Shown: positions 6,911 to 47,288 of the stretch, one piece after another
Position numbering within the stretch: position 1 is the stretch's first letter
Layout of the letters: each line of letters starts with the position of its first letter
Origin: a bacterium
Lineage (GTDB): Bacteria > Patescibacteriota > Microgenomatia > Daviesbacterales > UBA10151
Direction: 5' to 3'
Assembly (NCBI GenBank): GCA_030647265.1
Contig: JAUSJM010000034.1
Location: 1-58,016 of the forward strand
Length of the DNA stretch: 58,016 nucleotides
Notes under the pieces: model-generated
What the model saw: only the letters and a program-made list of their open reading frames with translations
What the model was told of the DNA's origin: nothing
Database searches by the model: none
Made by a program: the position numbers and the translations under genes

Positions 6911-6914
6911 AAAT

Positions 6915-7331: not shown

Positions 7332-7343
7332 AAGGAGAAAAAG

Positions 7344-7565
7344 ATGAAGAAAAACGATTTGGCAGAAATAAAAAAGATTGATCAAGCCTCTTTAAAAGAG
7401 AGGGTTAAAAAGTTACAAAAAGAGATTTTGGATTTGCTCTTTGATAAGGGAATGGGTAAAATATCAAACTCAAAGCAAATTAAAAATAAAAGAAGGGATT
7501 TGGCCCAGATGATGACAATTTTAAGACAAAAACAACTGATTGCAGAGCTGGAGGCAAAGAAATGA
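7344..7565 (+). CDS. rpmC: 50S ribosomal protein uL29
   Basis: 73-aa helical ORF between rplP and rpsQ. Confidence 0.9.
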   Translation: MKKNDLAEIKKIDQASLKERVKKLQKEILDLLFDKGMGKISNSKQIKNKRRDLAQMMTILRQKQLIAELEAKK

Positions 7566-8005
7566 TAAAAGAAAAAGGAAAACAACAAAAAACTTTAAGC
7601 CATCTTCTTCGGGGAAGGGTTGTTTCTGCCAAGTTACCGCAAACTGTCACGGTGTTGGTGGAAAGAACTAAAGTTCATCCGATTTACGGAAAGTCCTATA
7701 GAAGGAGCAAAAAATATTTGGCCCACACTACCCTGTCTTTAACAGAGGGGGATTTAGTGGAGATGATTAAATGTAAGCCTATTTCTAAAAACAAGCACTT
7801 CCTGGTCTTAAAGATGGTTGGTAAGGATATTGAAGCTGTAGTAACAGAACAGTTAAAAGAAGAGGCAGCCAAGGAGATTGCCGAGGCTATGCCAGTAGAG
7901 AAGACTGAGGAGACTTCAGTCATCAGTAATCAGACAGAGGAGAAAGTAGTAAAAGATCAAGAAAAGAGAAAGCCCAAACAAAGAAAGGAGAAGTCTAAAA
8001 GCTAA
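7562..8005 (+). CDS. rpsQ: 30S ribosomal protein uS17 with a long K/E-rich C-terminal tail
   Basis: 147 aa with the uS17 core (RGRVVSAKLPQTVTVLVER...HPIYGK). About 60 extra residues at the C-terminus; ATGA overlap with rpmC. Confidence 0.93.
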   Translation: MIKEKGKQQKTLSHLLRGRVVSAKLPQTVTVLVERTKVHPIYGKSYRRSKKYLAHTTLSLTEGDLVEMIKCKPISKNKHFLVLKMVGKDIEAVVTEQLKEEAAKEIAEAMPVEKTEETSVISNQTEEKVVKDQEKRKPKQRKEKSKS

Positions 8006-8030
8006 CAGCTGAAGACTGATAACTGATTTT

Positions 8031-8399
8031 ATGGTTCAACACAGGACGATGTTAAAAGTGGCAGATAACAGTGGAGCAAAAATCTTGCAGGTGATTCAGC
8101 CGTTAGGCGGATCCGGTAAGAGAAAGGCTACTTTGGGGGAGACAATGGTGGCAGTGGTAAAAGGTGCTATTCCCAACGGTCAGGTAAAAGACTCAGAAAT
8201 AGTGAGGGTGGTACTAGTGAGAGCTAGAAAAGAGATCAGACGAGCAGATGGTTCCTATATTAAGGATGATGAAAATGCCGGAGCGGTTATCGAAAAAGAC
8301 GGAAACTTAAGGCCCACAAGACTTTTTGGACCGATTGCCCGGGAGGTTAGAGAAAGGGGTTTTACTAAAATTGCCTCTTTGGCTCCGGAAGTATGGTAA
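8031..8399 (+). CDS. rplN: 50S ribosomal protein uL14
   Basis: 122 aa with the ADNSGAK motif. Confidence 0.97.
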   Translation: MVQHRTMLKVADNSGAKILQVIQPLGGSGKRKATLGETMVAVVKGAIPNGQVKDSEIVRVVLVRARKEIRRADGSYIKDDENAGAVIEKDGNLRPTRLFGPIAREVRERGFTKIASLAPEVW

Positions 8400-8414
8400 G
8401 GAGGATTTAAAAAC

Positions 8415-8723
8415 ATGAAAATTAAAAAGAATGACACTGTAAAAGTATTATTAGGCAAAGATCAAGGTAAAACCGGAAAAGTGCTACGTGTTTTAGGGAA
8501 GGAAGACAAAGTTTTAGTGGAAGGGGTCAATATTTCTAAACGACATGTCGGGAAAAAGGGCCAAACAGAAGGGGGAATTATAGATTTGGTAAAACCTCTG
8601 AATATCAGTAATGTGGCTTTGGTTTGTCCGAGTTGTAAAAAGCCCACCCGGGTAGGCTATAAATTAAATGGTCAAAGTAAAGTCAGAGTTTGTAAAAAAT
8701 GCCAAGAGGAGATTAAAGCATGA
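8415..8723 (+). CDS. rplX: 50S ribosomal protein uL24
   Basis: 102 aa with a KOW motif ([20 protein letters not shown]). Confidence 0.95.
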
Positions 8724-9268
8724 ACAGATTAAGAGAAAAATATCAAAAAGAGATACTTCCTAAACTAAAAGAGGAGTTTGGTGCTAAAAATAATCTGGCA
8801 GTGCCAAAAGTTTCTAAAGTGGTGGTAAATGTGGGTATGGGTGATGCCAAGGATAACCAGCAGGCAGCAGAAAAAGTGGTGGCAGACTTAGCTGCTTTGG
8901 CGGGACAAAAACCGGTTATTATGAAGGCCAAAAAATCCATTTCCGGATTTAAACTGGCGAAAGGGCAGCCGGTAGGAGCGATGGTAACGCTGCGGGGAGA
9001 AAGGATGTATCAGTTTTTAGACAAGCTGTTTAGCATAGTTTTGCCTAAAGTAAGAGACTTTAGAGGTATTGCCGACACCTCTTTTGACTTGCGCGGTAAC
9101 TTTACTTTAGGGCTTAAGGAACAAGCTATTTTCCCGGAAATAGGTTTTCAAAGTTCTTCTCCTTCGGTTAAAATAAGAGGCTTGGAAATTTCCATTGTGG
9201 GCACGGCCCGAAACCGGGAAGAAGGACGAAGATTATTGGAACTTTTAGGAATGCCCTTTAAAAAATAA
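8720..9268 (+). CDS. rplE: 50S ribosomal protein uL5
   Basis: 182 aa; uL5 core and cluster position fit. ATGA overlap with rplX. Confidence 0.96.
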
Positions 9269-9274
9269 ACAACT

Positions 9275-9454
9275 ATGGCTAAAAAAAGTAACGTTGTGAA
9301 GAAAAAAGAAAAATATGCGGTGCGCTACCACAGCCGCTGTTTGCGATGTGGCAAGACACGCTTTGTTTTTCGAAGATTTGGTTTGTGCAGAATTTGTTTT
9401 AGGGAGTTAGCCCACTTGGGCCAACTGCCGGGAGTAAAAAAGTCCAGCTGGTAA
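9275..9454 (+). CDS. rpsN: 30S ribosomal protein uS14, zinc-binding short type
   Basis: Hand translation: [59 protein letters not shown] (59 aa). It has CxxC...CxxC. Below the ORF-track cutoff. Confidence 0.93.
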
Positions 9455-9458
9455 AAAT

Positions 9459-9854
9459 ATGGATAAAGTAGGAGACTTACTGATTAGAATAAAAAATGCC
9501 TATATGGCTTCCAGGAAGGAGACAGTTGCTCCTTACTCTAAACTGAGTTTGGCGATCTGTCAGCTTTTGGTAAAGGAAGGCTACCTGGAAAAATGTGAAG
9601 CCAAAGAGAGACAGATTAAAATATTCTTAAAATATGAAAACGATAAGACTAAAACTACCGGTAAAGCTCCGGCCTTGACTGATGTAAAAAGAGTATCTAA
9701 GCCGGGCCGCCGGGTTTATCAGGGAAATAAGCTTTTACCGAGAGTTTATAACGGTTTAGGGATAGCTATCATCTCCACTCCCAAAGGGGTGATGAGTGAT
9801 AAGCAAGCCAGAAAGGAGAAGGTAGGCGGAGAAGTCATGGCCTTCGTCTGGTAA
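9459..9854 (+). CDS. rpsH: 30S ribosomal protein uS8
   Basis: 131 aa with the DLLIRIKNA N-terminus, in the expected cluster position. Confidence 0.96.
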   Translation: MDKVGDLLIRIKNAYMASRKETVAPYSKLSLAICQLLVKEGYLEKCEAKERQIKIFLKYENDKTKTTGKAPALTDVKRVSKPGRRVYQGNKLLPRVYNGLGIAIISTPKGVMSDKQARKEKVGGEVMAFVW

Positions 9855-9858
9855 AGAT

Positions 9859-10413
9859 ATGAGCAGAGTAGGTAATAATCCCATTGCAGTTCCTCAAACA
9901 GTAAATGTGGAGATTGAGGGGCAAAAAGTAGCTGTCAAAGGGCCTTTAGGGGAGTTGTCTTTACACTGCCAACCCCAACTGAAGGTCGTTTTAGAGGATT
10001 CACAAATTATAGTGAAACGGAAGAAAGAAGATGCTTTTTCCCGTTCCCTGCACGGACTGACCAGGTCTTTAATTGCCAATATGGTCCAGGGAGTGGAAAA
10101 GGGTTGGGAGAAAAAACTGGAGCTTATAGGGGTAGGTTACAGGGCACAATTAAACGGAGAAAAACTAGTATTAAATGTCGGCTTTTCCCATCCTGTGGAG
10201 GTAGCAGCTCCGGAAGGCATCCGTTTTGCAGTGGCAGATAACACTAAGATCACTGTTTCCGGAATTGATAAAAGTTTAGTGGGGCAGGTTGCTGCCACCA
10301 TCAGAAAGGTCAGACCGCCTGAGCCTTACCAGGGCAAAGGAATCCGTTATGTTGGAGAATACGTTCGCCGTAAAGCGGGAAAAGCCGGTAAGGTAGGAGC
10401 AGGGGCAAAGTAA
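9859..10413 (+). CDS. rplF: 50S ribosomal protein uL6
   Basis: 184 aa with the SRVGNNPI N-terminus. Confidence 0.96.
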
Positions 10414-10426
10414 TCAAGGAGAAACA

Positions 10427-10765
10427 ATGAAGTTAAATTTAAGACAGAAAAGGCATTTTAAAATAAGAAAGCATTTAACTGGCACTGCCTCTTGTCCCAG
10501 GCTGGCGGTTTTCCGTTCCAGCCAGCATATCTATGCCCAAATTATTGATGATAGCAAAGGTAAGACCCTGCTTTCCGGTTCTGATTTGAAATTAGATAAA
10601 AAGGGTGCAAAAATTGAAGTAGCTTTTGAGGTAGGTAAGAAACTGGGCCAGGAAGCCCTGAAAAAGGGTATTAAAGAGGTAGTTTTTGACAGAGGCGGAT
10701 TCTTATATCATGGAAGAGTAGCCAAAGTTGCCGAAGGTGCCAGGGAGGGAGGACTGAAATTTTAA
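10427..10765 (+). CDS. rplR: 50S ribosomal protein uL18
   Basis: 112 aa with [18 protein letters not shown] and [11 protein letters not shown]. Confidence 0.96.
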
Positions 10766-11298
10766 TGAATCTTGATAATTTACGTAACCAGTCAGAATAT
10801 TTTGAAAAAGTAGTCCAGGTCAACCGTGTTTCCAAAAAGACCAAAGGAGGAGATAAAAGATCTCTCTCAGTACTAGTGGTTTCAGGTGATAAAAGAGGAC
10901 GGGTGGGGGTAGGACTGGGAAAAGCCTCAGATGTCCAGTCGGCAGTGAGAAAGGCCACAACTTATGCTCAAAGACATATGATTACAGTACCTTTGAAAGA
11001 CAATCACACCATTCCCCATGCTATTGTTTTAAAACACGGGGCAGCTAGGGTAATGCTCAAACCTGCACCTGTGGGAACAGGAATTATCGCCGGAGGAGCA
11101 GTGCGGGTAGTGGTGGAGGCAGCAGGCATTTCCGATATTGTTTCTAAAATTTTAGGAACCAATAACCGGGCTTCCAATGTTTATGCTACCTTAGAAGCTT
11201 TAAGCAGGCTAAAGAAAATTAACCATGAAGCTGAAAAACCTACTGAAAAGGAAGAAAATAAATCCAAAAAGAAGGAGAAGAAAGATGAAGCTGCATAA
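10765..11298 (+). CDS. rpsE: 30S ribosomal protein uS5 with a K/E-rich tail
   Basis: 177 aa with VNRVSKKTKGG and GTGIIAGGAVR. Confidence 0.96.
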   Translation: MNLDNLRNQSEYFEKVVQVNRVSKKTKGGDKRSLSVLVVSGDKRGRVGVGLGKASDVQSAVRKATTYAQRHMITVPLKDNHTIPHAIVLKHGAARVMLKPAPVGTGIIAGGAVRVVVEAAGISDIVSKILGTNNRASNVYATLEALSRLKKINHEAEKPTEKEENKSKKKEKKDEAA

Positions 11299-11725
11299 GC
11301 TGTTAAAGGTAACGGGGAAAACAAAAAAAAGACTGGGACGGGGTTTAGGATCGGGGAAAGGTAAAACTGCTACTCGGGGAACCAAGGGCCAGAAAGCTCG
11401 GGAGAAGGTGGCAATAGGGTTTATCGGGGGCACCCTGCCTTTATACAAAAAGATCCCTTATCGCCGTGGTTTAGGTAATCCTAAACGGAGTCGAAAGATG
11501 GTTCCTCTGCCTCTTGCCAAGCTTGGCGGTTTTAAATCTCAATCCAGTATTGATTTGCAGGCTTTGATTGAAAAGGGGCTGGTTGGTGAAAAAGAAGCCC
11601 GCTTTAGGGGGGTAAAGGTTGTTAATGGCGGAGAAATAACTGTGGCCTTAAAGGTTAATCTTCCTGTGACTACTGCCGCCGCTTTAAAGATTGTCAAAGC
11701 AGGAGGAACAATTATCCGTGGCTAG
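11285..11725 (+). CDS. rplO: 50S ribosomal protein uL15
   Basis: [39 protein letters not shown] is the canonical uL15 N-terminus. I prefer ATG 11285 over the track's 11225, which lies inside rpsE. Confidence 0.92.
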
Positions 11726-13004
11726 CCTACTTGCTCCGCTTTTAGGGGCTTTCAAGATTCCCGACTTACGCCGCAAAATTATTATCACCGCCGTAGTTAT
11801 TGTAATTTACCGCATCGCCGCCCATATTCCTGTAGGAGGAGTTGATTTAGCCGCTTTAAAATCTCTTTTCGAAAGTAACCAATTTTTAGGGCTGCTGGAT
11901 ATTTTTTCCGGCGGTACTTTAGGAAACTTTTCTATTATATCTTTGGGGTTAAATCCTTACATCAATGCCTCCATTATTATGCAGCTTTTAACGATGGTTT
12001 TCCCCTCCCTGGAAGCCCTTTCTAAAGAAGGGGAATTTGGGAGGCAGAAAATTAACCAATATACAAGATATCTGACAGTTCCTTTGGCTGTTCTGCAATC
12101 AGTGGGAATGTTTACTCTCTTGAAAAACCAGGGCATTGTTCCTCAGGCTATTCCCCTTAGTATCCTGGCTATTATTGTTGCTATGACAGCGGGGACGATC
12201 TTTGCCATGTGGTTGGGAGAGTTGATTACTGAGTATGGAGTAGGCAACGGTATCTCTTTGCTTATCTTTGCCGGCATTGTAGCTCAGGCGCCGGTCGCTT
12301 TTACCCAGACCATCTCTATTGCCGATCAACAGCAGATATTAAACTTATTGCTTTTTGGCGCCCTGGGTTTAGCTATTACTGCGGGTATCGTCTTTATAAA
12401 CGAAGGCAGGAGGCAGATTATGGTCCAGTATGCCCGGAGATTTCTGGGAGGCAGGGAGGTGGGAGGATCGTCTACTTACTTACCACTCCGAGTTAATCAA
12501 GCAGGGGTAATACCTATAATCTTTGCCGTTTCTTTGGTACTTATTCCCTCCTTTGCCGGTCAATATTTGTCTTCGGTAAACCAACCGATGCTGCAGTCAG
12601 TAGGCCGATGGTTTTTGACTTACTTTACGGTTAACTCCTGGGCCTATAATCTAACCTACTTTATCTTGGTTATCGGTTTTACCTACTTTTACACGGCGGT
12701 GGTTTTTAATCCCGGTAAAATTTCCGAAGAGATTAAAAAATCCGGAGCTTTTATTCCCGGTATTAGGCCGGGGACAGCCACTGCTGCATATTTAAACTAT
12801 ATTTTGCTCCGAATTACCTTGGCAGGGGCGGTCTTTTTGGGCTTAGTGGCCATCTTGCCTTCCATTGTTTCCCAGATGACGGGGGTTACCACTCTAGCTA
12901 TCGGAGGCACCGGGCTATTGATTGTGGTCTCAGTTATTTTAGATACCGCCAAACAGTTTGAGAGCAGATTGGTGGAAAGAAATTACGAGAGGTTTTTAAC
13001 TTAA
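11718..13004 (+). CDS. secY: preprotein translocase subunit SecY
   Basis: Polytopic membrane ORF between rplO and adk. I prefer GTG 11718, which follows AGGAGG (11701-11706), over the track's TTG 11691. Confidence 0.93.
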
Positions 13005-13005
13005 G

Positions 13006-13542
13006 GTGAAGGTCATGATTACCGGTCCGCAAGGATCAGGAAAAACCACCCAAGCAAAAGCTTTAGCCAAAAAGTTAGGACTGTGTTTGATAGAGGTGGG
13101 TGCTATGCTGCGGGAGAGAGTTAAAAAGGGCGATCCTTGGAGTCTGGAGGTCAGGAAAACCTTAGACGAGGGGCAGCTGATGGACGATCAGCTGGTTTCC
13201 CGTTTAGTGAAAAAAAGGATTTCTGAGAGTGATTGCCAGCAGGGATTTGTCAGTGACGGCTACCCCCGGACTTTCTCTCAACATCTGGAATGCGATGCAG
13301 GATTTGATAAAGTCTTATATTTAAAAATTTCCGACGAGGAAGCGATAAAAAGACTGCTAAAAAGAGGCCGGGAAGATGACAACCTGCCGGCGATTGAAAA
13401 AAGATTAACTTGGTATCACGAGGAGACGAAACCACTTTTGGATTATTACCAGGACTTAGGGATTTTGGTGACTATCAACGGCGAGCGACCCATAAAGGAG
13501 GTAGCAAAAGAGATCGAAGGGTATTTTAAGGACCAACCATGA
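13006..13542 (+). CDS. adk: adenylate kinase (short form)
   Basis: 178 aa with a GTG start and the P-loop GPQGSGKTTQ. Confidence 0.88.
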   Translation: MKVMITGPQGSGKTTQAKALAKKLGLCLIEVGAMLRERVKKGDPWSLEVRKTLDEGQLMDDQLVSRLVKKRISESDCQQGFVSDGYPRTFSQHLECDAGFDKVLYLKISDEEAIKRLLKRGREDDNLPAIEKRLTWYHEETKPLLDYYQDLGILVTINGERPIKEVAKEIEGYFKDQP

Positions 13543-38427: not shown

Positions 38428-39003
38428 ATGAATGATGATGTAACTATAATTCCACCTGCTCCTGTTTCTGATAACAACAGCAGTATTACTCCTATAACTT
38501 CCAATACCACTCAGCATGAGATGGAAATTATTACTGTCAATGAAGTAACAGCAGGAAACCGCCGTCAGGCAGAAGCGACCCTCAGAGCTTTGGCGGAGGC
38601 AGGTTTGGATCTAGAGCTGGCAGCTAAAGGTTTAGAAGAAGGTCATGGAAATACTGTTAATAAGATGATCACTAACCAAAGATTTATTGATATGGAAAAT
38701 AAGGTAGGAGGTATGGCAGTCTCCCAAAATTCGGTGGCTGCCTGGCAGCTGGAAGCCAAAAAAGTTTTAGGGTCAGGAAATGTTCAGTCAGAAAACACTG
38801 GTAACCCTGGATTATTAATTTATCAGGGAGTGGGGACTGAGATAGAAAAGATGGAAGATTTAAGAGAAGAGATTGGTAGCAGGAGAATTAAGATGGTGGT
38901 AGTTATGGGAACCAAAGTAGCAGGGGAGATAGAAGCTTCTAAAGAAGATCCAAGCTTACCCTCTGCAAGTTCAAGTGGTAAAATACTAAGTTACGGGGAT
39001 TAG
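38428..39003 (+). CDS. hypothetical protein (191 aa)
   Basis: ORF with no recognisable domain. Its last 10 nt overlap tRNA-Pro. Confidence 0.4.
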   Translation: MNDDVTIIPPAPVSDNNSSITPITSNTTQHEMEIITVNEVTAGNRRQAEATLRALAEAGLDLELAAKGLEEGHGNTVNKMITNQRFIDMENKVGGMAVSQNSVAAWQLEAKKVLGSGNVQSENTGNPGLLIYQGVGTEIEKMEDLREEIGSRRIKMVVVMGTKVAGEIEASKEDPSLPSASSSGKILSYGD

Positions 39004-39065
39004 TTCATCGGCAGAACGCCGGGCTGGGGGTCCGGATGTAGGGAGTTCAATTCTCCCATCCCCGA
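38994..39065 (+). tRNA. tRNA-Pro (anticodon GGG)
   Basis: Hand-folded cloverleaf: acceptor cggggat/atccccg, D arm gttc-atcggca-gaac, anticodon arm ccggg-ctgggGg-tccgg (U33, GGG, G37). Variable loop atgta, T arm gggag-ttcaatt-ctccc, discriminator A. CCA is not encoded. Confidence 0.85.
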
Positions 39066-39067
39066 CA

Positions 39068-39295
39068 GATCGAGAATTGGTGAAAGATGCTATCCGTCTT
39101 TATGTTGAGAGTTTACAAAAACATAAAGAACATATCCCTCAAGAAGAAAACTCCCTCATTAGCTCAGTGGATATAGACCTGCCACAGCTTTATGCCTAAG
39201 ACTTACAAACTCATCTAAAAGAGATTCCCAAGGGGACTTTGACTGCCATATTAAGAGAGTCTGGAGTTTCCCAAGACGAGTTTAAAAAAGCCTGA
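39068..39295 (+). pseudogene. toxin-antitoxin gene remnants immediately 3' of tRNA-Pro
   Basis: One frame reads DRELVKDAIRLYVESLQKHKEHIPQEENSLISSVDIDLPQLYA* (RHH/antitoxin-like C-terminus). It then reads DLQTHLKEIPKGTLTAILRESGVSQDEFKKA* (HicA-like C-terminus). There is no proper start. Confidence 0.4.
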
Positions 39296-39339
39296 TTTAT
39301 AAGGCAAACTTTTACTCCCTACTCTTCTGGCTTTGTACC

Positions 39340-39353
39340 TATGTATCCATACA
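39340..39353 (+). promoter_or_regulatory. inverted-repeat motif TATGTATCCATACA upstream of recA
   Basis: Exact 14-mer also present at 44206-44219. Here it lies between TTGTAC (39333-39338) and TAGAAT (39355-39360). Confidence 0.5.
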
Positions 39354-39379
39354 CTAGAATTTAAGATCAAAGTGGGGGC

Positions 39380-39407
39380 TTGACATAGTTTCGGGTTTTG
39401 TTAATAT
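39380..39407 (+). promoter_or_regulatory. candidate recA promoter TTGACA-N16-TAATAT
   Basis: ttgaca at 39380-39385 and taatat at 39402-39407. This predicts a start site at or near ATG 39415. Confidence 0.4.
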
Positions 39408-40509
39408 GAAACATATGCCACAAGATAACGGTGATGCCAAAAAAATTGCCATTTTAACTGCCATGCAACAGATCCAAAAGCAGTATGGCACGGGTTCAAT
39501 TATGAGGTTGGGTGAGCGGGTCGAGAAGATGTCTATTGATATTATTTCCACGGGTTCGATTGCTTTGGATTTGGCTCTGGGTGTAGGTGGACTTCCTAAA
39601 GGGAGAATTATTGAAATTTACGGTCCTGAAGCTTCTGGTAAAACAACAGTAGCTTTACATGTCATTGCCCAGGCTCAGAAAAAAGGCGGGGTAGCAGCTT
39701 TTATCGATGCCGAACATGCTTTAGATCCCCAAAGGGCTCAAAAGTTAGGAGTAAACTTGGATGACCTGTTAATTTCCCAGCCAGATACCGGAGAGCAGGC
39801 CCTGGAAATTGCTGAAACTTTAATCCGTTCCGGAGGTATTGATGTGATTGTTATTGACTCAGTAGCAGCCTTGGTTCCCAAAGCGGAGATTGAAGGTGAA
39901 ATGGGTGATTCTATGATGGGTGTTCAGGCCAGACTAATGTCTCAGGCTCTTCGAAAACTTACCGGAGCTATTTCCAATACTAACACCATCGCTATTTTTA
40001 CTAATCAGCTGAGGCAAAAGATTGGGGTGATGTTTGGCAATCCGGAAGTAACTACTGGAGGTATGGCCTTAAAGTTTTACTCTTCGGTTCGTTTGGATAT
40101 CAGAAAGATTGAAAATATAAAATCCGGTGATGTGGTAATAGGGTCCAGGCATCGGGTAAAGGTAGTGAAAAATAAGGTCGCTCCCCCATTTAGGATTGCT
40201 GAATTTGATATGGATTTTGATGGCATCTCTCATGAGGGAGAGCTTTTGGATGTTGGTATAGAGCTGGGGATATTAACCAAATCCGGAGCTTTTATTAAAT
40301 GGGAAGAAAAATTATTAGGTCAAGGGAGACAAGCAGTAATTATTACCTTGAAAGAAGACAAAAAACTGGCTGAAAAATTAGAAAAAGATATCAGAGAAAG
40401 ATGGGGTAAACAGGCATCAGGTAAGGATATAGTAGTAGGAAAAGAAGAACAGGAAGAAGCTATGCCTGCCGGCAGACAGGAAGCAGGTTTAGTAGAAGAA
40501 GCAGTCTAA
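39406..40509 (+). CDS. recA: recombinase RecA
   Basis: 367 aa with GPEASGKTT Walker A and IVIDSVAAL. The start could be ATG 39415. The C-terminal tail is extended. Confidence 0.96.
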
Positions 40510-40517
40510 CTTTTTGG

Positions 40518-41180
40518 ATGCCCAAAATTACCTCAGTAGAACCTCAGAAAAAGAACCCTAGAAGATTTAATGTTTTTTTAGATGGATTATTTGCTTTTGG
40601 AGCAGATGAAGATTTAATAGTAAATTACCGTCTTATCCCGGGAAAAATAATCGAACAAAAAGATCTGGAAAAACTGCTTTTTGAATCAGAAGTGGGGAAG
40701 CTCATGGAGCGAATGTACGGGCTTTTTTCTATGAGAGCTCGTTCTGAGAAAGAGGTTAGAAATTATTTAAGGAATTTATCCTTTAAAAGAAAAATAAAAG
40801 ATAAGGAAGAAATTTCTCAGTTGGTGATTGATCTTTTGGTGGAGAGGTTAAAGCAAAAGGGGATGATAAATGATTTGGAATTTGCTAAAGCTTGGGTAGA
40901 AGGAAGAAGAAAAAGCAAACAAAAGGGGGTAAGAGCTTTAGAGATGGAACTTTTTCAAAAGGGAATTAACAGAGAAATAATTGAAGAAGTCGTCAGTCAT
41001 CAGCCGTCAGCTGTCAGCGAAGAAGAGTTAGCAAAACTTGCTCTAGAAAAAAAGATGAGGTCTTGGAAAAACTTGGAAGGTTGGGAATTAAAGAAAAAAG
41101 CTACAGAATTTCTTTTAAGAAAGGGTTTCGATTATTCAGTGGTAAAAACTGTAGTTGAAAATATTCTAAAAACAGGGTAA
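40518..41180 (+). CDS. recX: RecA regulator RecX
   Basis: 220 aa directly after recA, with the RecX-type helical repeat pattern. Confidence 0.8.
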   Translation: MPKITSVEPQKKNPRRFNVFLDGLFAFGADEDLIVNYRLIPGKIIEQKDLEKLLFESEVGKLMERMYGLFSMRARSEKEVRNYLRNLSFKRKIKDKEEISQLVIDLLVERLKQKGMINDLEFAKAWVEGRRKSKQKGVRALEMELFQKGINREIIEEVVSHQPSAVSEEELAKLALEKKMRSWKNLEGWELKKKATEFLLRKGFDYSVVKTVVENILKTG

Positions 41181-41305
41181 ACTACTATCAAAGTTTAGGA
41201 AACTTGAGGAAAAAGTGATGGTTCAAGCAGCTTTTGTAGTTACCAAAACAGCTTACCTTCAAAAGCTCTCATAGAGGGTCTCTTTTCCTTTTCCTAAAAA
41301 ATTTT

Positions 41306-42646
41306 ATGCAAAAAACATTTGGACCTGGCAGTTCTGTGCCTTCTTCTGATCCTGTCTCTTCAGGAGATTTTGGCAAACAGGAGGCAGAGTTGGCAAAGAG
41401 GGAAGGTATTTTGGAGGAAAGAGAAAGACTTCTGGCTGAGAAGCTCACCGCTGTTGATCAGAGGTTGGGGGAAGTGGAAAAAATCCGCAAAGATTTAGTT
41501 GCTAAGTTAGAAAAATCTGCCGGACTTCCTCAAGAAGAAGCCAAAAAGCTGCTTTTGGAAAATATTGAAAAAGAGTTAGCTTCAGAAATTTCCAAAAGAA
41601 TTAAAGAAGCAGAAGAAGAGATCAAGGTTGAATCTGATGAAAGAGCTCGTTCTATCCTGGCAGAAGCGATGCTTCATGGGGTAACAGATTATGTGGCTGA
41701 ATTTACCACCTCTCAAGTAAAACTTCCTGATGAAGAGATGAAAGGAAGGATTATCGGTAAAGAAGGCCGCAACATCCGGGCTTTTGAAAACGCTACCGGG
41801 GTGGATGTATTGATGGATGAAACACCGGGAGTGTTAATTTTGTCTTCTTTTGATGCTGTCAGACGAGAAATTGCCCATATCGCTTTAGAGAGACTTATGC
41901 AGGATGGGAGGATTCAGCCGGAAAGGATTGAAGAGATTGTTAAAAGAACCCAAGAGGAGGTAGAAAAGATCATGTTTCAGGCAGGGGAGGCTTTGGCTCA
42001 CGAAGTGGGGGTTTATAACTTACCCCGGGAACTGATCTCTTTACTGGGCCGTTTTAAATACCGTTATTCTTATGGCCAAAACATGATCCAGCATACCCTG
42101 GAAGAGACAAAAATTGGCGTTGCTTTAGCTAAAATGCTGGGGGCCAATGTCAATATTGTCAGACTGGGCTGTCTTTTACATGATATCGGTAAGGTAGTTG
42201 ATCAAGACGATGAAGGAACACATGTGGAAAAAGGTGTCAGTGTGGCTAAAAAATATGGTTTGCCGGAAGAGGTTATAAATTGTATCGCTGAACACCATGA
42301 GGAAAAGCCTTTTTCTGCCGTAGAATCAATTATTTGTTATATCGCTGACGCTATCTCGGGAGCCAGACCCGGTGCCAGACGGGAAGATATTGAAGGATAT
42401 ATAAAGCGGATTGAGGATATTGAAAAGATTGCTACGTCCTATGAAGGGGTGGAAAAAGCCTTTGCCGTTTCGGCAGGACGGGAAGTAAGAGTGGTAGTTT
42501 TCCCGGAAAAAGTTTCCGATGAGGAATTACCTAAACTTACCCATGACATTGCTCAAAGGATCTCCAAAGAGGTGATGGTTCCGGGCCAGGTAAAAGTTAC
42601 AGCTATCAGAGAAGTCAGAGCTATGGATTACGCCATGACATCCTAA
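41306..42646 (+). CDS. rny: ribonuclease Y (no N-terminal membrane anchor in this ORF)
   Basis: 446 aa with a coiled-coil, a KH domain (GRIIGKEGRNIRAFE) and an HD domain (LLHDIGK). Confidence 0.88.
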   Translation: MQKTFGPGSSVPSSDPVSSGDFGKQEAELAKREGILEERERLLAEKLTAVDQRLGEVEKIRKDLVAKLEKSAGLPQEEAKKLLLENIEKELASEISKRIKEAEEEIKVESDERARSILAEAMLHGVTDYVAEFTTSQVKLPDEEMKGRIIGKEGRNIRAFENATGVDVLMDETPGVLILSSFDAVRREIAHIALERLMQDGRIQPERIEEIVKRTQEEVEKIMFQAGEALAHEVGVYNLPRELISLLGRFKYRYSYGQNMIQHTLEETKIGVALAKMLGANVNIVRLGCLLHDIGKVVDQDDEGTHVEKGVSVAKKYGLPEEVINCIAEHHEEKPFSAVESIICYIADAISGARPGARREDIEGYIKRIEDIEKIATSYEGVEKAFAVSAGREVRVVVFPEKVSDEELPKLTHDIAQRISKEVMVPGQVKVTAIREVRAMDYAMTS

Positions 42647-43830
42647 TATTTTATTCTCCAAGCCAGGAAATAGTTTAAGAGCAATAAAAAAACTCCTCCT
42701 AAAAAGACATGGGAGAGAATAATTGCTCCGGTAATATTAAAGTTAGCCAGGCCAGCAGGGTTTTTAATGTTTAATCCCAACATGAGGTAAATAATCGCTA
42801 TAGTCAGGAAAAAGATAGGAGAGAGTTTAGTTTTATAAAACAGATAAGTGGTAGTTATCAGGGGGAAAAGAACGATGGTGAAATGGTGCTGCCAGGCAAA
42901 GGTAGAAAAGATAAGGGTGTATAAAATACCGATATTCCAAAGAATAATTTGTGAGGTGAGATCTTGAGAGTTGATCTTTCGCTGAAAATAGATAAAAACC
43001 AGCAAAGCAAAGGACAAAAGAAGGGTGGAGAATATTCTGATAGAGGTAAGAGGTAAAGAAAATCTTAAAAAAACAGCCGTAAGTGATTGGTTATAGTAGA
43101 CAGGGTCATAAAGGTTAAAATAACGGGGGATAACTGCCCAGTAATGTAAGAAAAGGTCAGGACCAAAAACCAAGAGGGTAACAGCTCCCAAGGTTAATAA
43201 ACAAACAGCAATTCCTAATAAAATTTTTATCCTTTTTTCCAGCAGAAAGAGGAATAAGAAAAAGAGGGGGGTGATCTTAAAGATGATACCCAGAGATAGA
43301 AGAAAAGCTGCTGGTAACTCTTTTTTCTTTTGGAGAAGATAGAAACTTGTAGATAAAAAGAAAAAGAGAAAATTATTAACTTCCCCCGAGCCTAAATTAA
43401 ATCTGAAGGGAAAAAACACCAGGACTCCTGATAGATAGAATATCCAAAGAAGTCTGTTGTCTGAAATATTAAGAGCTTTAAATAAAAAGTATGAACCAAT
43501 AAGAAAGGATATTAAGGACAGCAGAAACCAGGCTATCTGACTCATTTCCAGGGGTAGTAATGGGAGTAGGGAAAAGACCAATAAAGAAGGAGGGGGAGTA
43601 TGAAAATCAGAAATCTCTTTTTTGGAATAAGGATTTAGCCCAACTGACACTTGCTTTCCTGCTTGGTAGAGCACTGTAAAATCCAAAGCTGGCTTTTGTA
43701 AGACTTTTAAGTTACTGAAAGTAAACTGCCAAGTTAATAATAAAAAAAGAGGTAGGAGTAACCAGAAGAGCTTAGGATTAGAAAGAAGGGCTTGGAGCTT
43801 CATCTGCTTTACAAGCATAAGAAAAAGCAT
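42643..43830 (-). CDS. polytopic membrane protein, DUF2029/GT87-like glycosyltransferase
   Basis: 395 aa with ~10 TM segments and an LDFTVLYQAGKQVSVGLNPYS loop typical of the DUF2029 family. Confidence 0.45.
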   Translation of the reverse strand: MLFLMLVKQMKLQALLSNPKLFWLLLPLFLLLTWQFTFSNLKVLQKPALDFTVLYQAGKQVSVGLNPYSKKEISDFHTPPPSLLVFSLLPLLPLEMSQIAWFLLSLISFLIGSYFLFKALNISDNRLLWIFYLSGVLVFFPFRFNLGSGEVNNFLFFFLSTSFYLLQKKKELPAAFLLSLGIIFKITPLFFLFLFLLEKRIKILLGIAVCLLTLGAVTLLVFGPDLFLHYWAVIPRYFNLYDPVYYNQSLTAVFLRFSLPLTSIRIFSTLLLSFALLVFIYFQRKINSQDLTSQIILWNIGILYTLIFSTFAWQHHFTIVLFPLITTTYLFYKTKLSPIFFLTIAIIYLMLGLNIKNPAGLANFNITGAIILSHVFLGGVFLLLLNYFLAWRIKY

Positions 43831-43873
43831 AGTACTTTACAACTGGACAGCTATCTGATAGATTACATCTAGG

Positions 43874-44146
43874 ATGACAAAGAACGAATTAATTGAGAAG
43901 GTAGCAAAAAAATCTTATCTTACCAAGAGGGCCACTACTGAGGCAGTAAATAATACCTTTGGTTTTATTGAAGATGCTTTGACAAGAGGAGAGAAAGTGG
44001 TGGTTTCCGGTTTTGGGACCTTTTTAATTCGCTCTCGGGCTGCCAGGAGGGGTAGAAACCCCCAAACAGGGCAGACTATTCAAATCCCTCAGAAAAAACT
44101 CCCCGGTTTTACTGCCGGAAAAACCCTCAAAAGAAAAGTTAGATAG
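43874..44146 (+). CDS. hup: HU-family DNA-binding protein
   Basis: 90 aa with GFGTFLIRSRAARRGRNPQTGQTIQIP. Confidence 0.92.
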   Translation: MTKNELIEKVAKKSYLTKRATTEAVNNTFGFIEDALTRGEKVVVSGFGTFLIRSRAARRGRNPQTGQTIQIPQKKLPGFTAGKTLKRKVR

Positions 44147-44205
44147 TATTTTTCCTTTTCCCTGGCTATTTTTGCTACTTGACTCCTCTACCCTTTTAAA
44201 GTTAG

Positions 44206-44219
44206 TATGTATCCATACA
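44206..44219 (+). promoter_or_regulatory. inverted-repeat motif TATGTATCCATACA upstream of the TrpR-like gene
   Basis: Identical to 39340-39353. It overlaps a TAGTAT -10-like hexamer (44203-44208), 18 nt after TTGACT (44179-44184). Confidence 0.5.
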
Positions 44220-44258
44220 GGAAGAATTTAGAGTTCTCGTCCAAAGGACGATGGACCT

Positions 44259-44570
44259 TTGGCCCAAAAAGTCAAAATGAGCAAGCCTAAAACCAACTCT
44301 GCTGTTAATATCCCTGACCACCTTATCAGAGAGCTTCTTACCCCATCAGAACTTCGAATGTTACAAAACCGTTGGAAAATAATGAACCTTTTAGAGGAAG
44401 GTCTGACTATTAGGGGGATAGCTGAAGAGGTGAAGGTGGGAACAGATACAGTGGTAAGGGTAGCCCGGATGACAGAAAGAAAAACAGTCAGGGAAGCTCT
44501 AAATAAGAATTTGAATTCAAAGAGGACTATCAAATCCAAAACCCCCTGGATTTTCGGTAAGTCAGAGTAG
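44259..44570 (+). CDS. TrpR-related YerC/YecD-family DNA-binding protein
   Basis: 103 aa with LLTPSELRMLQNRWKIMNLLEEGLTIRGIAEEVKVGTDTVVRVAR. The track start is TTG; ATG 44277 is an alternative. Confidence 0.7.
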   Translation: MAQKVKMSKPKTNSAVNIPDHLIRELLTPSELRMLQNRWKIMNLLEEGLTIRGIAEEVKVGTDTVVRVARMTERKTVREALNKNLNSKRTIKSKTPWIFGKSE

Positions 44571-45278
44571 TTATTTAAAAGTAGCAGCCAGTTTTTCCCA
44601 CTGGGCTTTGCGAAGTTTCAGTCTTTCGTCACTATCAATAATTTCTTTTGCTTTTTGCAGGTGTTCTTTGGCTTTTTCTGGGTTGTCCTCACGGAGCATT
44701 TCTACTAAGTGCATATGGTTTCCTGATACCCAAACGTTTTTATTGTAATCGGAAATTTCTGCTGACGTTTCCAGTTCACTCAGAGCACTCTCTGCCCTCT
44801 CAAGTGCAGTTTTATCACCAGTATTGTACTCGGCATGAGCCAAATGGAATTTAAAATCAGCTATAATAGCTGGTCTCTCAGGAACACGGTGAACAACGGG
44901 AGGATTATTGATAATATTATCAAGAGCTTCTCTAAAAGAGTTTGTGGCGTTTTGATGTTCTCCAAGAATTTCCTGAAGTTTGCCGAGATTAAATAAAGGA
45001 ATAGCCAGAGCAGTTTTATCACCACTTTCCTGGGCAATATCTACAGAGGCCATGGCAGTATACTTAGCAAGGATTAGGTAGGCTTTGTTTTCTGTTTGCT
45101 CATATAAATGACGAAGAGTAATGACACGGCCAGCAAGTGCTTCTGCGAAACCAAGAAGATCGTTCTCTTTTTGATAGGAAACCATCGCCCTCTCAGATAG
45201 CTCTAATGACTTGGTAAAATCTCCAGCTTCTCTGGCTTGCTCAGATTGGCCATGTAGTTGTCTTGCTTCTAGTTCCAC
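44571..45278 (-). CDS. TPR-like helical repeat protein, function unknown
   Basis: 235-aa all-helical repeat ORF. Its stop abuts the stop of the TrpR-like gene. Confidence 0.5.
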   Translation of the reverse strand: MELEARQLHGQSEQAREAGDFTKSLELSERAMVSYQKENDLLGFAEALAGRVITLRHLYEQTENKAYLILAKYTAMASVDIAQESGDKTALAIPLFNLGKLQEILGEHQNATNSFREALDNIINNPPVVHRVPERPAIIADFKFHLAHAEYNTGDKTALERAESALSELETSAEISDYNKNVWVSGNHMHLVEMLREDNPEKAKEHLQKAKEIIDSDERLKLRKAQWEKLAATFK

Positions 45279-45334
45279 TATGATATTTTAGCAAATTGTG
45301 GCAAGGGTTACAATAATTCGGTAGAATAAAGCCC

Positions 45335-46330
45335 ATGAAAAAGGTTTTGGTGGTTTTGGGACCTACAGCTATCGGAAAAACAGATTTGGCTCTTAAACTG
45401 GCAAAAAAGTTTGATGGGGAGCTAATTTCCTGTGATTCCCGTCAGGTATATCAGGGCTTGGATATTGGGACAGGCAAAATGCCAAGTCAAAATTCAAAAA
45501 TCAAAAGTCAAAGGTACAAGTTAAAAGTTCAAAAGCTTAAAAGTAGATGGGTAATAAATGGGATCAGTATTTGGATGTACGATGTGGCAGATCCTCAGGT
45601 AAGGTATACAGTGGCTGATTATGTAAAAGAGGCAGAAAAGGTTATTGGAAATATTATCAAGAAAGGTAAAATACCTATCATTGTGGGAGGAACTGGTCTT
45701 TACCTGAAAGCTTTACTGGAAGGATTACCGAATCTTTCTATTCCCATGGATTATCAACTAAGAGGGGAGTTAGAGAAGCTGTCTTTAGAGGAGCTGCAGC
45801 AAATAATACAGCTACTCTCCCCTACTGGATGGAAAAAATTAAACGATTCAGACAGAAAAAATCCGCGCCGTCTCCTCCGCTCTATCGAACTTATACTTAT
45901 GAATCCATACATACAATCAATTAAAAATTTAAAATTTAAAATTAAAAATTACAATCTTTTAAAGATTGGGCTTACAGTTCCCCGCCAGGTTTTAAAGCAA
46001 CGGATTAATTTACGTCTGATTTCCAGGATAAACCAAGGATTAATTGAGGAGGGAGAGAGACTCTTAAAAGAAGGAGTAACTTTAAAAAGGATGAGAGAGT
46101 TGGGACTGGAATATGGAATGCTCGCCGAACTTCTCGGCGGTGAGATCAGCCAAAAACAGTTTCTCGAGCAGCTATCAGTAAAAATTTCTCAGTATGCTAA
46201 AAGACAGATGACTTGGTTTAAAAAAGAAAAAGATGTTTTTTGGTTTGATATAACTAAAGGGAATTTTTCTCAGGAAGTAGAAAAGATAATCCAGTCATGG
46301 TATGATCAAGCGGATGACAAGACGGATTGA
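45335..46330 (+). CDS. miaA: tRNA dimethylallyltransferase with two K-rich inserts
   Basis: 331 aa with GPTAIGKT P-loop and CDSRQVYQGLDIGTGK. The inserts are SQNSKIKSQRYKLKVQKLKS (45485-45544) and KNLKFKIKNYN (45923-45955). Confidence 0.85.
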   Translation: MKKVLVVLGPTAIGKTDLALKLAKKFDGELISCDSRQVYQGLDIGTGKMPSQNSKIKSQRYKLKVQKLKSRWVINGISIWMYDVADPQVRYTVADYVKEAEKVIGNIIKKGKIPIIVGGTGLYLKALLEGLPNLSIPMDYQLRGELEKLSLEELQQIIQLLSPTGWKKLNDSDRKNPRRLLRSIELILMNPYIQSIKNLKFKIKNYNLLKIGLTVPRQVLKQRINLRLISRINQGLIEEGERLLKEGVTLKRMRELGLEYGMLAELLGGEISQKQFLEQLSVKISQYAKRQMTWFKKEKDVFWFDITKGNFSQEVEKIIQSWYDQADDKTD

Positions 46331-47288
46331 CATTTCCTGGAAAACCATAATTTTTGTAACAGCCTTTTTTATCCTTCTGTGGATTATTTTTAAGATTTTA
46401 GATATCATCCTCCTCTTTTTTGTAGCCTTTATTTTTATGTCTGCCCTGACTCCAATAATCGAAAGACTTGTAAAATGGAAGGTGCCCAAAAGTTTGGCAG
46501 TGATAGTAGTTGTTTTATCAATCATTTTAGGAATTATAGGGGCTTTGGCTGTAGGTATTACTCCCCTCGTCACCCAAACCAGCAACTTGGGGAGTAAGTT
46601 GTCAGAAACTGTGGCTTTATTTCCTCAGACTTTAAGGCTTGACCAGTCGGTGATTTCTCAGGAGGTCTCCCGGCTTTCCGGACAGGCTGTTTCTATCACA
46701 GTAGATATTTTCAGAAACGTCATCGGTTTTGTCAGTGTCCTGGTGATTACTATCTATCTTCTTTTGGACCGGGAAAAAATTGAAGGTTATGCTACTTCCT
46801 TTTTTGGTCCTCGCCAGGATAGAGCCAAAAAAATACTTAGGATGATCGAGGACAAACTGGGAGACTGGCTGCGGGGACAGCTTGTTTTATCTTTAGCAGT
46901 TGGGGTCATGGTTTATATTGGGTTAGTTGCCTTGGGTTTGGATTATGCTTTGCCTTTGGCCATTATTGCCGGGTTTTTAGAGGTGGTGCCTGTTTTAGGT
47001 CCGATCATCTCTGCTATCCCCGCTATTTTACTGGCATTAACTGTTTCTCCCCTGCTGGCCCTTTTAGTAGCGGGGGTTTATTTTGTTATTCAGGAGTTAG
47101 AAGGACATCTTCTAGTGCCCTTAATAATGAAGAGGGCAGTAGGGCTAAATCCCATTTTAGTTATCCTGGCTATTTCAGTGGGAAGCAGGCTTTTGGGATT
47201 GGGAGGAGCACTACTGGCTGTACCTATTGCGGTAGTAATTCAGCTCATTTTGCAAGAGAGTCTAAAGATTGAAGAAGAGCTCTCCTAA
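46302..47288 (+). CDS. AI-2E family transporter (PerM/UPF0118)
   Basis: 328-aa polytopic ORF with ...LGDWLRGQLVLSL... and GFLEVVPVLGPIISAIPA. It overlaps miaA by 29 nt if the start is 46302. Confidence 0.85.
   Translation: MIKRMTRRIDISWKTIIFVTAFFILLWIIFKILDIILLFFVAFIFMSALTPIIERLVKWKVPKSLAVIVVVLSIILGIIGALAVGITPLVTQTSNLGSKLSETVALFPQTLRLDQSVISQEVSRLSGQAVSITVDIFRNVIGFVSVLVITIYLLLDREKIEGYATSFFGPRQDRAKKILRMIEDKLGDWLRGQLVLSLAVGVMVYIGLVALGLDYALPLAIIAGFLEVVPVLGPIISAIPAILLALTVSPLLALLVAGVYFVIQELEGHLLVPLIMKRAVGLNPILVILAISVGSRLLGLGGALLAVPIAVVIQLILQESLKIEEELS

Follow-up and report, generated by a model that had tools for sequence, protein, structure and literature searches.

A conserved palindrome upstream of recA and of a TrpR-family regulator gene in Daviesbacteria

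The Trp repressor of Escherichia coli (TrpR; PDB 1TRO, 1TRR) is a small, all-helical helix-turn-helix (HTH) protein that regulates its own gene together with trp and aro genes. It recognizes a 20-bp operator, TGTAcTnGTnnACnAgTACA, built from inverted half-sites of the TGT..ACA type, and there is evidence that its operators are occupied in tandem at 8-bp offsets. A relative, YerC of Bacillus subtilis (YerC/YecD; PDB 3G1C, 3KOR, 3FRW), has been identified as HisR, a histidine repressor (PMC9413887). HisR controls his genes through the motif cacTTTA-N6-TAAAgtg, with histidine as corepressor; about half of hisR genes have a site of their own, and the regulon was defined by comparative genomics (PMC9413887). 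In the part of the literature that we searched, we found no published link between a TrpR-family protein and recA or thyA.

Here we examine a window of 58,016 nucleotides, the whole stretch analysed (contig JAUSJM010000034.1 of assembly GCA_030647265.1), from a member of the Daviesbacterales. Bacteria of the candidate phyla radiation (CPR; Patescibacteria) are uncultured and have very small genomes, from which amino-acid biosynthesis is largely missing. To our knowledge, almost none of their transcription factors has been characterized. A sequence-only reading of the window had noted the same 14-nt inverted repeat in front of recA and in front of a gene for a TrpR/YerC-family protein. It proposed that this protein controls its own gene and a recA-recX-rny operon, which would amount to a LexA-independent regulon for DNA damage or recombination, and it described the family as one of unknown function, a description that HisR overturns.

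We compared the window with 28 related Daviesbacteria loci; together they make up 520 kb, about 2% of each genome, and the resulting view of the regulon spans 10-20 kb around the regulator gene. The motif proves to be a conserved cis element with fixed positions, common to recA and the TrpR-like gene. The TrpR-family protein encoded at 44277-44570, a binder proposed through guilt by association, probably recognizes an operator that has the 14-mer at its core.

A palindrome at three fixed positions

Exact copies of the 14-mer TATGTATCCATACA lie on the same strand at 39340-39353 and 44206-44219, as first reported. A third copy, TATGAATCCATACA, lies at 45898-45911 within the miaA ORF and differs by one mismatch. 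Three copies with at most two mismatches compare with 0.28 expected, and none of 100 dinucleotide shuffles of the window contained three, which upholds the claim that the recurrence exceeds chance. The miaA copy is missing from the earlier list. The centres of the inner half-sites are 7 bp apart, tighter than the usual spacing for an HTH dimer.

In the 520 kb, the 12-mer TGTAT-(CC|GG)-ATACA occurs exactly 43 times, against about 0.1 expected (0.115 in shuffles). Nearly all of these copies fall at three places: the promoter or start codon of the TrpR-like gene, the region upstream of recA and one quartet of codons in miaA. The centre is always CC or GG, and the flip from one to the other leaves the palindrome intact at all three classes of site. 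The sequence-only reading would have been undermined by copies scattered at random or by loss of the motif at recA in relatives that encode the regulator; placement is position-specific, and the motif is kept upstream of recA in 22 of 23 such loci and at the regulator gene in 27 of 28. In one complete genome, L011, which encodes the regulator, the recA site is present but the regulator gene has no site in front of it. In a search for RecA homologues the best 120 matches were all from Daviesbacteria, at least 81% identical.

The regulator gene (44277..44570, + strand, Pfam PF01371) encodes 97 residues from an ATG at 44277, and the 103-residue ORF proposed earlier, from a TTG at 44259, gives way to this annotation. 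Its promoter at 44179..44208 (+ strand), supported by a promoter scan and by conservation, consists of TTGACT (44179-84), an 18-nt spacer and TAGTAT (44203-08), the two hexamers originally described; with 39380-39407 it is one of the top two matches of the scan. TTGACT-N17/18-TAnnAT is kept in the related loci that have the CC orientation. The putative operator core, an exact copy at 44206..44219, covers the last 3 nt of the -10 element and the predicted start-site region. Across the loci the site, CC or GG, lies over the gene's own core promoter in 27 of 28 cases (-10 edge, +1, start codon), the arrangement expected of an autoregulated operator-repressor module, and it mostly touches or overlaps the start codon (..TATGTATCCATACATGAGC). 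The spacer also holds a CTCTACCC box (44186-93). Eight of 28 regulator-gene sites are preceded by a CYCTACYC box, in every case at a distance of 13-14 nt.

At recA the geometry is different. The putative operator core, TA-TGTAT-CC-ATACA at 39340..39353, has an equivalent in 22 of 23 loci (19 exact copies and three that differ at one base); the contig of L017 stops 10 nt short of recA. The probable promoter lies downstream at 39380..39407 (+ strand), where TTGACA (39380-85), a 16-nt spacer and a TG-extended TAATAT (39402-07) form the best sigma-70-type match in 39000-46400. The recA ATG at 39415 follows 7 nt past the -10 element, which implies a leaderless mRNA. The arrangement TTGACA-16/17-TAnnAT, with an ATG 6-9 nt past the -10, recurs in about 21 of 23 loci, and the distance from site to -35 element is 24-27 nt (17 loci by automatic scan, about 21 of 23 by inspection). 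The site is thereby centred at about -68, a geometry that is not simple LexA-like occlusion.

The motif had been placed inside the core promoter, between TTGTAC (39333-38) and TAGAAT (39355-60). Both hexamers are present, but they are unconserved and fail the consensus scan, and we reject them as the recA promoter. TGTAC (39334-38) is better read as an outer half-site, with a weak counterpart, GAATT, at 39357-61; the right outer half-site AWACA is found at recA in 12 of 23 loci. A box of CYCTACYC consensus, CCCTACTC (39317..39324, + strand), lies 17 nt upstream of the core. Of 23 recA sites, 11 have such a box in the 45 nt before them, nine at 17-18 nt, against a background of 0.002 per 45 nt. 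In one clade the spacer of the recA promoter is itself conserved. This second box, CYCTACYC, and the clade's conserved spacer hint at further factors.

Pfam matches identify recA (39415-40509; alternative start 39406), recX (40518-41180) and RNase Y (HD/KH; rny, 41306-42646), all on the + strand. The recA start is likely the ATG at 39415; the annotated RecA has 364 residues, with 100% identity over 100% coverage. A weak terminator-like hairpin lies at 41265-79. We presume that recA, recX and RNase Y (39415..42646) form the regulated unit, its extent and co-regulation being suggested by gene order. Besides this unit, no repair genes were found among the genes of the window.

The third site, operator-like TA-TGAAT-CC-ATACA at 45898..45911 (one mismatch), is read as Met-Asn-Pro-Tyr within miaA. 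The equivalent position carries the motif in 15 loci, where the CC/GG flip exchanges Pro and Gly. Third-codon identity is 0.97 in the site and 0.63 in the adjoining conserved RRLLRSIE codons, a difference from which we conclude that the site is maintained by selection at the DNA level. Looping between the regulator-gene and miaA sites was considered and set aside, their separation ranging from about 830 to 6000 bp. With its synonymous-site conservation and Pro/Gly flip, the miaA-embedded operator would be a clear case of a regulatory site that constrains protein sequence.

The candidate binder and its proposed action

Which protein binds the palindrome? Every motif context, in three lineages whose neighbouring genes are otherwise unrelated, shares one gene only, that of the regulator, and its product is therefore the likely binder. 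In Levybacteria-like genomes, a longer subfamily with the same recognition helix as the Daviesbacteria regulator is encoded in a dcd-dNK-thyA-[TF]-folA-glyA cluster; its candidate sites, TGTAT-TG-ATACA, lie in 28-bp palindromes before its own gene and before the folA operon. Some sources label this subfamily 'YerC/YecD'. In a third lineage, TGTGTTAATACA adjoins the start codon of the regulator gene. Because these half-sites precede homologous regulator genes amid different neighbours, autoregulation by a TrpR-like binder is the best reading.

All homologues match Pfam PF01371 (Trp_repressor); the match here spans residues 21-74 with 44.4 bits against a cut-off of 27 (E 1.8e-11). Scores for NCBIfam TIGR01321 (TrpR; 21.6 bits) and TIGR02531 (YerC/YecD, HisR; 22.2 bits) lie below the respective cut-offs of 67.25 and 42.2. 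By sequence profile HisR is nearest (3kor, 5e-8; 3g1c, 1.5e-7), followed by E. coli TrpR (4e-4). An AF2 monomer model (pLDDT 77) has five helices and a disordered tail, and nearly all of its top 20 Foldseek matches are TrpR or TrpR-like (TM 0.50-0.58, probability 0.98-1.0, E-values only 0.06-0.4). As modelled, the protein has the all-helical HTH fold of TrpR. Alignments reveal three invariant stretches: the N-terminal MSKP, VGTDTVVR in the HTH and a C-terminal W-[IV]-F-G tail. Wherever the motif is invariant, so is the recognition helix, GTDTVVR, and the palindrome with its CC/GG flip would be consistent with a symmetric dimer.

We propose that the operator consists of inverted pentamers, TGTAT-NN-ATACA, with CC or GG at the centre in Daviesbacteria, often flanked 8 bp further out by weaker TGTnn / nnACA half-sites. 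The full site, about 28 bp, might then be filled by a tandem pair of dimers, the arrangement of E. coli TrpR on its operators. At its own promoter, a protein bound over the -10 edge, the transcription start and mostly the start codon would exert negative autoregulation. At recA, and probably at recX and rny, it would modulate expression from upstream of the core promoter, either blocking upstream contacts of RNA polymerase (repression) or recruiting the alpha C-terminal domain (class I activation). We lean slightly towards repression, since the recA promoter already has the consensus form and the TrpR-family members known to us are all repressors. In miaA the site might act as a roadblock, serve as an auxiliary site or mark an internal control point. 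Both controls originally proposed are supported. Autoregulation stands well, backed by the position-specific sites and the homologous genes in other lineages; control of recA is the less certain, because the recA site is clear of the core promoter.

What might the protein sense? The equivalents of TrpR residues Thr44, Arg54 and Arg84, which line the corepressor pocket, are conserved in the alignment, which suggests a small-molecule ligand, and the thymidylate/folate context of the sister subfamily suggests a signal related to DNA precursors. A partner protein or a protease may dock on the invariant, disordered WxFG tail. A much wider scheme can be imagined, though we would lean against it as a whole. 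It would make this TrpR-fold family (MSKP, GTDTVVR, WxFG) specific to the CPR and a master regulator of DNA metabolism in reduced genomes, acting on recA in Daviesbacteria and on thymidylate/folate genes in Levybacteria-like genomes. The protein would sense a DNA-precursor metabolite or damage through its pocket or tail, replace LexA, to which it is unrelated, and bind a new kind of operator with four TGTnn half-sites spaced 8/7/8 bp, one site being recoded in miaA.

Competing explanations

The palindrome may be a real operator with another binder, a LexA-type, XRE-type or other protein encoded elsewhere, the TrpR-like gene being one of its targets. The 520 kb represent about 2% of each genome in which such a regulator might be sought, L011 keeps its recA site but has none before the regulator gene, and more than one factor is suggested by the additional CYCTACYC box, itself conserved. 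We nevertheless regard this explanation as unlikely: in three lineages with unrelated neighbouring genes the motif accompanies the regulator gene, recognition helix and half-sites are conserved together, and the loci contain no LexA/S24 peptidase gene and no known SOS box.

The last point extends the earlier observation that the window lacks lexA and a canonical SOS box, which holds for all 520 kb (about 2% of each genome). Neither a LexA-like ORF nor an S24 peptidase gene was found there, and tblastn searches of the same 520 kb gave no matches to LexA of E. coli or B. subtilis (approximate query sequences). Within 260 nt around the recA motif, five known types of LexA box had exact matches in 0 of 23 loci and one-mismatch matches in 0-4 of 23. 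The part of the literature that we searched yielded no description of LexA in Microgenomates. Work by Sanchez-Osuna and colleagues on the SOS network of Patescibacteria, in 2017, reportedly placed LexA in at least some of these bacteria, and for this reason the absence of LexA should not be assumed.

The palindrome might instead be a promoter or structural element. An alternative sigma factor could use CYCTACYC as its -35 element, given the fixed distance of the box upstream and the overlap of the motif with the -10 of the regulator gene; but the gap between box and motif is 17-18 nt at recA and 13-14 nt at the regulator gene, a difference that a single sigma factor would not tolerate. The 28-bp palindromes of the Levybacteria-like loci could fold as hairpins, but the 12-mer alone cannot, with a loop of 2 nt, and the TGT..ACA half-sites are conserved across lineages rather than covarying freely. 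There is also a resemblance to the DnaA box (gTATCCAtA versus TTATCCACA), and the variant TGTATCCACACA (L005, L001) includes TATCCACA. The DnaA consensus, however, requires CACA at positions 6-9, where most sites here have CATA, and symmetric conservation runs past the 9-mer. We judge the DnaA-box and hairpin readings unlikely on these grounds, and since the motif also occurs in either orientation at the same position, promoter and structural elements in general seem quite improbable.

Chance recurrence of a functionless, AT-rich 14-mer is refuted by positional conservation, nearly all of the 43 copies lying at orthologous positions and no shuffle of the window matching the observed count, even though very large collections contain many chance copies of the exact 14-mer. 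A metagenome-wide scan found it in at least 120 loci; among the matches listed, none encodes RecA, MiaA or the regulator or resembles Daviesbacteria. Those listed matches are chance occurrences in unrelated organisms and are uninformative about the regulon.

Comparison with known regulators

In about 28 Daviesbacteria genomes the palindrome is conserved at recA, at the regulator gene and in miaA, which suggests that recA has a TrpR-type regulator not described before. The regulator, its candidate operator and three target positions are legible from sequence alone. If the proposal is true, the TrpR family gains a third function beside those tied to tryptophan (TrpR) and histidine (HisR), and recA control gains another route that does not involve LexA; the control of recombination is then also linked with the thymidylate/folate genes of sister lineages.

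The regulator resembles LexA in that it is a small DNA-binding protein, predicted to be autoregulated, whose palindromic site is found also at recA. It differs in that its 97 residues hold an HTH only, with no S24 autopeptidase domain, in that its site matches no known SOS box and in that this site, at recA, stands clear of the core promoter on the upstream side. Control of recA or repair genes by proteins other than LexA is known from PafBC in mycobacteria, DriD in Caulobacter, DdrO/IrrE in Deinococcus and ComK, which acts on recA in B. subtilis. PafBC, DriD and ComK are activators whose sites lie at the -35 element or upstream of it, and the -68 geometry seen here would permit activation of that kind. 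These regulators are WYL-domain proteins, an XRE repressor with a metalloprotease, and ComK, with different motifs; we know of none in the TrpR family. A comparison with NrdR and other regulators of dNTP supply also suggests itself: the sister subfamily lies, and has candidate sites, within a thymidylate/folate cluster, which would imply control of DNA precursors. NrdR itself is an ATP-cone/zinc-ribbon protein that binds 16-bp boxes at nrd genes and is not homologous to the regulator here.

The closest likeness is to TrpR and HisR. The regulator shares with TrpR its Pfam family, its modelled fold, predicted autoregulation and inverted half-sites of the same TGT..ACA type, and HisR too is often autoregulated. 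The operators set it apart: TGTAT-N2-ATACA, with a core of 12-14 bp, has a spacing unlike that of the 20-bp TrpR and HisR operators, and its motif is neither that of TrpR nor that of HisR. No his genes were found near the regulator in 34 loci, and the targets predicted from sites are recA, miaA and folA rather than the trp and aro genes of TrpR. The MSKP N-terminus and the C-terminal WxFG tail, a further difference from TrpR, are specific to the family described here. We regard the regulator as a functionally new variant within the TrpR family.

A palindrome shared by three genes

The 14-nucleotide palindrome TATGTATCCATACA occurs twice in the window as an exact copy, at 39340-39353 and 44206-44219 on one strand, just as the sequence-only reading had claimed. 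A scan allowing up to two mismatches adds a third copy, TATGAATCCATACA, at 45898-45911. Three copies were observed at this threshold versus 0.28 expected, and none of 100 dinucleotide shuffles reaches three. The earlier gene identities (recA, recX, the regulator and their neighbours) are borne out by Pfam: RecA is encoded at 39406/39415-40509, RecX at 40518-41180, an RNase Y-type protein at 41306-42646, HU at 43874-44146 and a Trp_repressor-family regulator from an ATG at 44277, its annotated form having 97 aa. The third copy lies within miaA (45335-46330; TIGR00174). The window itself is a complete contig of 58 kb from a Daviesbacteria-like bacterium of the Microgenomates, part of the candidate phyla radiation.

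Homologues of the regulator come nearly all from Daviesbacteria. We compared the window with 28 loci from distinct species found by genome scan, 520 kb with the window included. The core TGTAT-(CC|GG)-ATACA occurs 43 times in these 520 kb versus 0.115 in shuffles (maximum 2), and no core copy in them has a centre dinucleotide other than CC or GG. With up to one mismatch, almost every copy belongs to one of three orthologous classes: before the regulator gene, upstream of recA and inside miaA. The motif and the TrpR-like gene are co-conserved, with a site at the regulator gene in 27 of 28 loci (the sole exception is L011), and the motif is likewise kept upstream of recA in 22 of the 23 loci with recA upstream sequence. 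CC and GG centres alternate in every class (recA 20/3, regulator gene 17/10, miaA 12/3), as expected if a symmetric dimer reads both pentamers regardless of how the centre is oriented. We conclude that the motif is almost certainly a functional cis element. Two exact 14-mers, 300-430 bp apart, also occur in each of two unrelated metagenome contigs (L059, 1467 and 1895; L063, 1033 and 1312), where they probably reflect a repeat belonging to another organism.

The miaA site, present in 15 loci, directly follows a conserved RRLLRSIE segment and always covers the same four codons, Met-Tyr/Asn-Pro/Gly-Tyr. Third-codon identity is 0.97 within the site versus 0.63 in the adjoining conserved codons, and the flip from CC to GG swaps Pro for Gly. 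Together these observations argue for selection on the DNA, not the protein. Examples are the window copy (45898-45911) and those in four related loci (L001, 12270; L003, 5616; L009, 1665; L012, 12971). A promoter scan revealed no convincing promoter beside the miaA site. The distance from this site to the one at the regulator gene varies among loci from about 830 to 6000 bp, which makes a loop between the two unlikely.

Promoter geometry at the regulator gene and at recA

At the regulator gene the usual layout is TTGACT-N17/18-TAnnAT, with the motif beginning inside the -10 hexamer and finishing at the start codon or within it (..TATGTATCCATACATGAGC). The regulator mRNA should accordingly be nearly leaderless, as it appears to be in most relatives, and the site spans the -10 edge and +1. 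Because the site overlaps the promoter, the regulator would be expected to repress its own transcription. In most relatives the operator adjoins the ATG, whereas in the window a 57-nt insert (44220-44276), containing short inverted repeats (cgtcc..ggacg), separates them; different inserts are found in L007, L019 and L027. The regulator gene is directly preceded by the HU gene (43874-44146) in the window, and likewise in L001, L002, L004, L005, L007, L012, L016, L024 and L151, the last a locus with a homologous regulator. The window shares the conserved order rny...HU-regulator...miaA-AI-2E transporter with L151 and with many Daviesbacteria loci.

The recA sites are exact in 19 loci and carry one mismatch in 3. 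The TTGTAC and TAGAAT hexamers noted earlier around the recA motif are not conserved among related loci. Downstream of the motif, at 24-27 nt, comes instead a promoter close to consensus, TTGACA-16/17-TAnnAT; the window copy, at 39380-39407, is the top promoter match in 39000-46400. The recA ATG follows the -10 by 6-9 nt (17 loci by automatic scan, about 21 of 23 by inspection), and no Shine-Dalgarno sequence precedes it in about 21 genomes. This combination suggests a leaderless recA mRNA, and the likely start is the ATG at 39415, not that at 39406. Measured to the -35, the same 24-27 nt place the centre of the site near -68, at fixed spacing and clear of the core promoter.

Additional pentamers flank the recA core. 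Exactly 3 nt past it, AAACA or ATACA is found in 12 of 23 sites, and TGTAT or TGTAC stands 3 nt ahead of it in some, including the window (TGTAC, 39334-38). Outer and inner pentamers together form an array of four putative half-sites. The promoter spacer is also conserved: within one clade (the window, 39389-39402, and L001, L002, L004, L010, L027 and L028) TTTCGGGTTTTGTT is invariant and the 3 nt preceding it variable, and in another clade TTCGGTAAATATTTGG replaces it. This spacer sequence may be a second operator in the classical position for a repressor. Just upstream of the -35, the direct repeat TGATAT-N5-TGATAT is found in one clade (L004, 5757-5774; L010, L027, L028) and an A/T-rich stretch followed by GGGGTA in the other; both may be sequences of the UP-element type, or another site.

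A second conserved element, the CYCTACYC box, precedes the palindrome at a set distance: 17-18 nt in the case of recA (window 39317-39324) and 13-14 nt in that of the regulator gene (44186-44193), where it comes straight after the -35. It occupies equivalent positions in L001-L027, and 19 of its 52 copies in the 520 kb are at recA or regulator-gene sites. A short ORF (under 60 aa or unlisted) at about 39150-39297, ending in LKEIPKGTLTAILRESGVSQDEFKKA and a stop, borders the recA regulatory region on its upstream side; L028 has a near-identical one.

A TrpR-family protein as the candidate binder

What protein might read this palindrome? The regulator passes Pfam PF01371. Its AF2 model (pLDDT 77) has five helices and a disordered tail, and its best structural matches are TrpR and TrpR-like proteins, at a TM of about 0.55. 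The family is small: an exhaustive profile search gives 51 cluster representatives with E below 1e-10. Its recognition helix, VGTDTVVR, is invariant family-wide.

Further contexts come from other lineages. A long subfamily of 120-146 aa shares the helix and the C-terminal W-x-F-G of the short form. In five Levybacteria-like loci (L149, L150, L152, L153 and L154, about 6400-13100 in each) its gene lies in a thymidylate-cycle cluster, dcd-dNK-dcd-thyA-(nudix)-[regulator]-(HIT/nudix)-folA-glyA. There TGTAT-TG-ATACA directly precedes the regulator gene and recurs ahead of the folA operon, and the sites extend to 28-bp palindromes, for example TGTAG-tga-TGTAT-tg-ATACA-tca-CTACA or TGTTT-cca-...-tgg-AAACA. 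In L149 an F420_ligase-family gene (2776) has a further copy 33 nt upstream. At a sixth locus, with the rny-ymdB-HU-[regulator]...miaA synteny of the window, TGTGTTAATACA adjoins the regulator ATG. The regulator gene is the only gene common to every context of the half-site pair, which is the strongest available argument for its product as the binder and for autoregulation. We consider it quite probable that the TrpR-like protein binds the motif. The 8/7/8-bp spacing of TGTnn half-sites fits tandem dimers, a mode of operator binding known for E. coli TrpR (PDB 1TRR, itself among the fold matches).

Positions equivalent to Thr44, Arg54 and Arg84, which line the corepressor pocket of TrpR, are conserved in the alignment, and a small-molecule ligand is therefore plausible. 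Both termini carry invariant sequences: M-S/A-K-P at the N-terminus and, in the Lys-rich tail, predicted to be disordered, W-[IV]-F-G, within an invariant T-P-W-I-F-G-K (residues 89-97, window 44541-44570) that follows a variable, Lys-rich linker. W-x-F-G extends across the whole family. These look like short linear or docking motifs for a partner or protease.

Probable control of recA and comparison with known systems

The sequence-only reading proposed that the regulator controls both itself and recA. The core of that idea stands, with conserved sites at both genes; the promoter geometry assigned to recA does not, nor do LexA independence and a DNA-damage role in the form proposed. The data show a conserved site of fixed geometry at three loci and a co-conserved regulator. 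Control of recA transcription is probable, if somewhat less so than binding. The regulator would act on recA from about -68. Such a position is typical of class I activators, and the regulator may act as one there. It may also repress, through interference with upstream polymerase contacts, a reading favoured by the consensus, leaderless promoter and by the family's tendency to repress. That the system is a DNA-damage response we think doubtful. Neither lexA nor any known SOS box turned up in the 520 kb of window and related loci, which cover about 2% of each genome; Sanchez-Osuna and colleagues are said to have described LexA regulons in some Patescibacteria in 2017.

How does the regulator compare with known proteins? 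The family profile matches YerC/HisR-type structures from S. aureus (5e-8) and E. eligens (1.5e-7) and E. coli TrpR (4e-4). The regulator scores under the NCBIfam cut-offs of both TrpR and YerC/YecD. The label 'family of unknown function' is outdated, since YerC has been shown to be HisR, a histidine-dependent repressor with the operator cacTTTA-N6-TAAAgtg (PMC9413887). Our literature search returned no TrpR-family protein tied to recA, thyA or folA and no description of the motif. The fold is familiar, as is the logic of an autoregulated HTH dimer on palindromes; what is new is the operator, the predicted targets (recA and miaA here, with folA added for sister lineages) and the lineage of the host. 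Differing from TrpR and HisR in score, operator and targets, the regulator is classified here as a putative functional variant within a known family, neither TrpR nor HisR.
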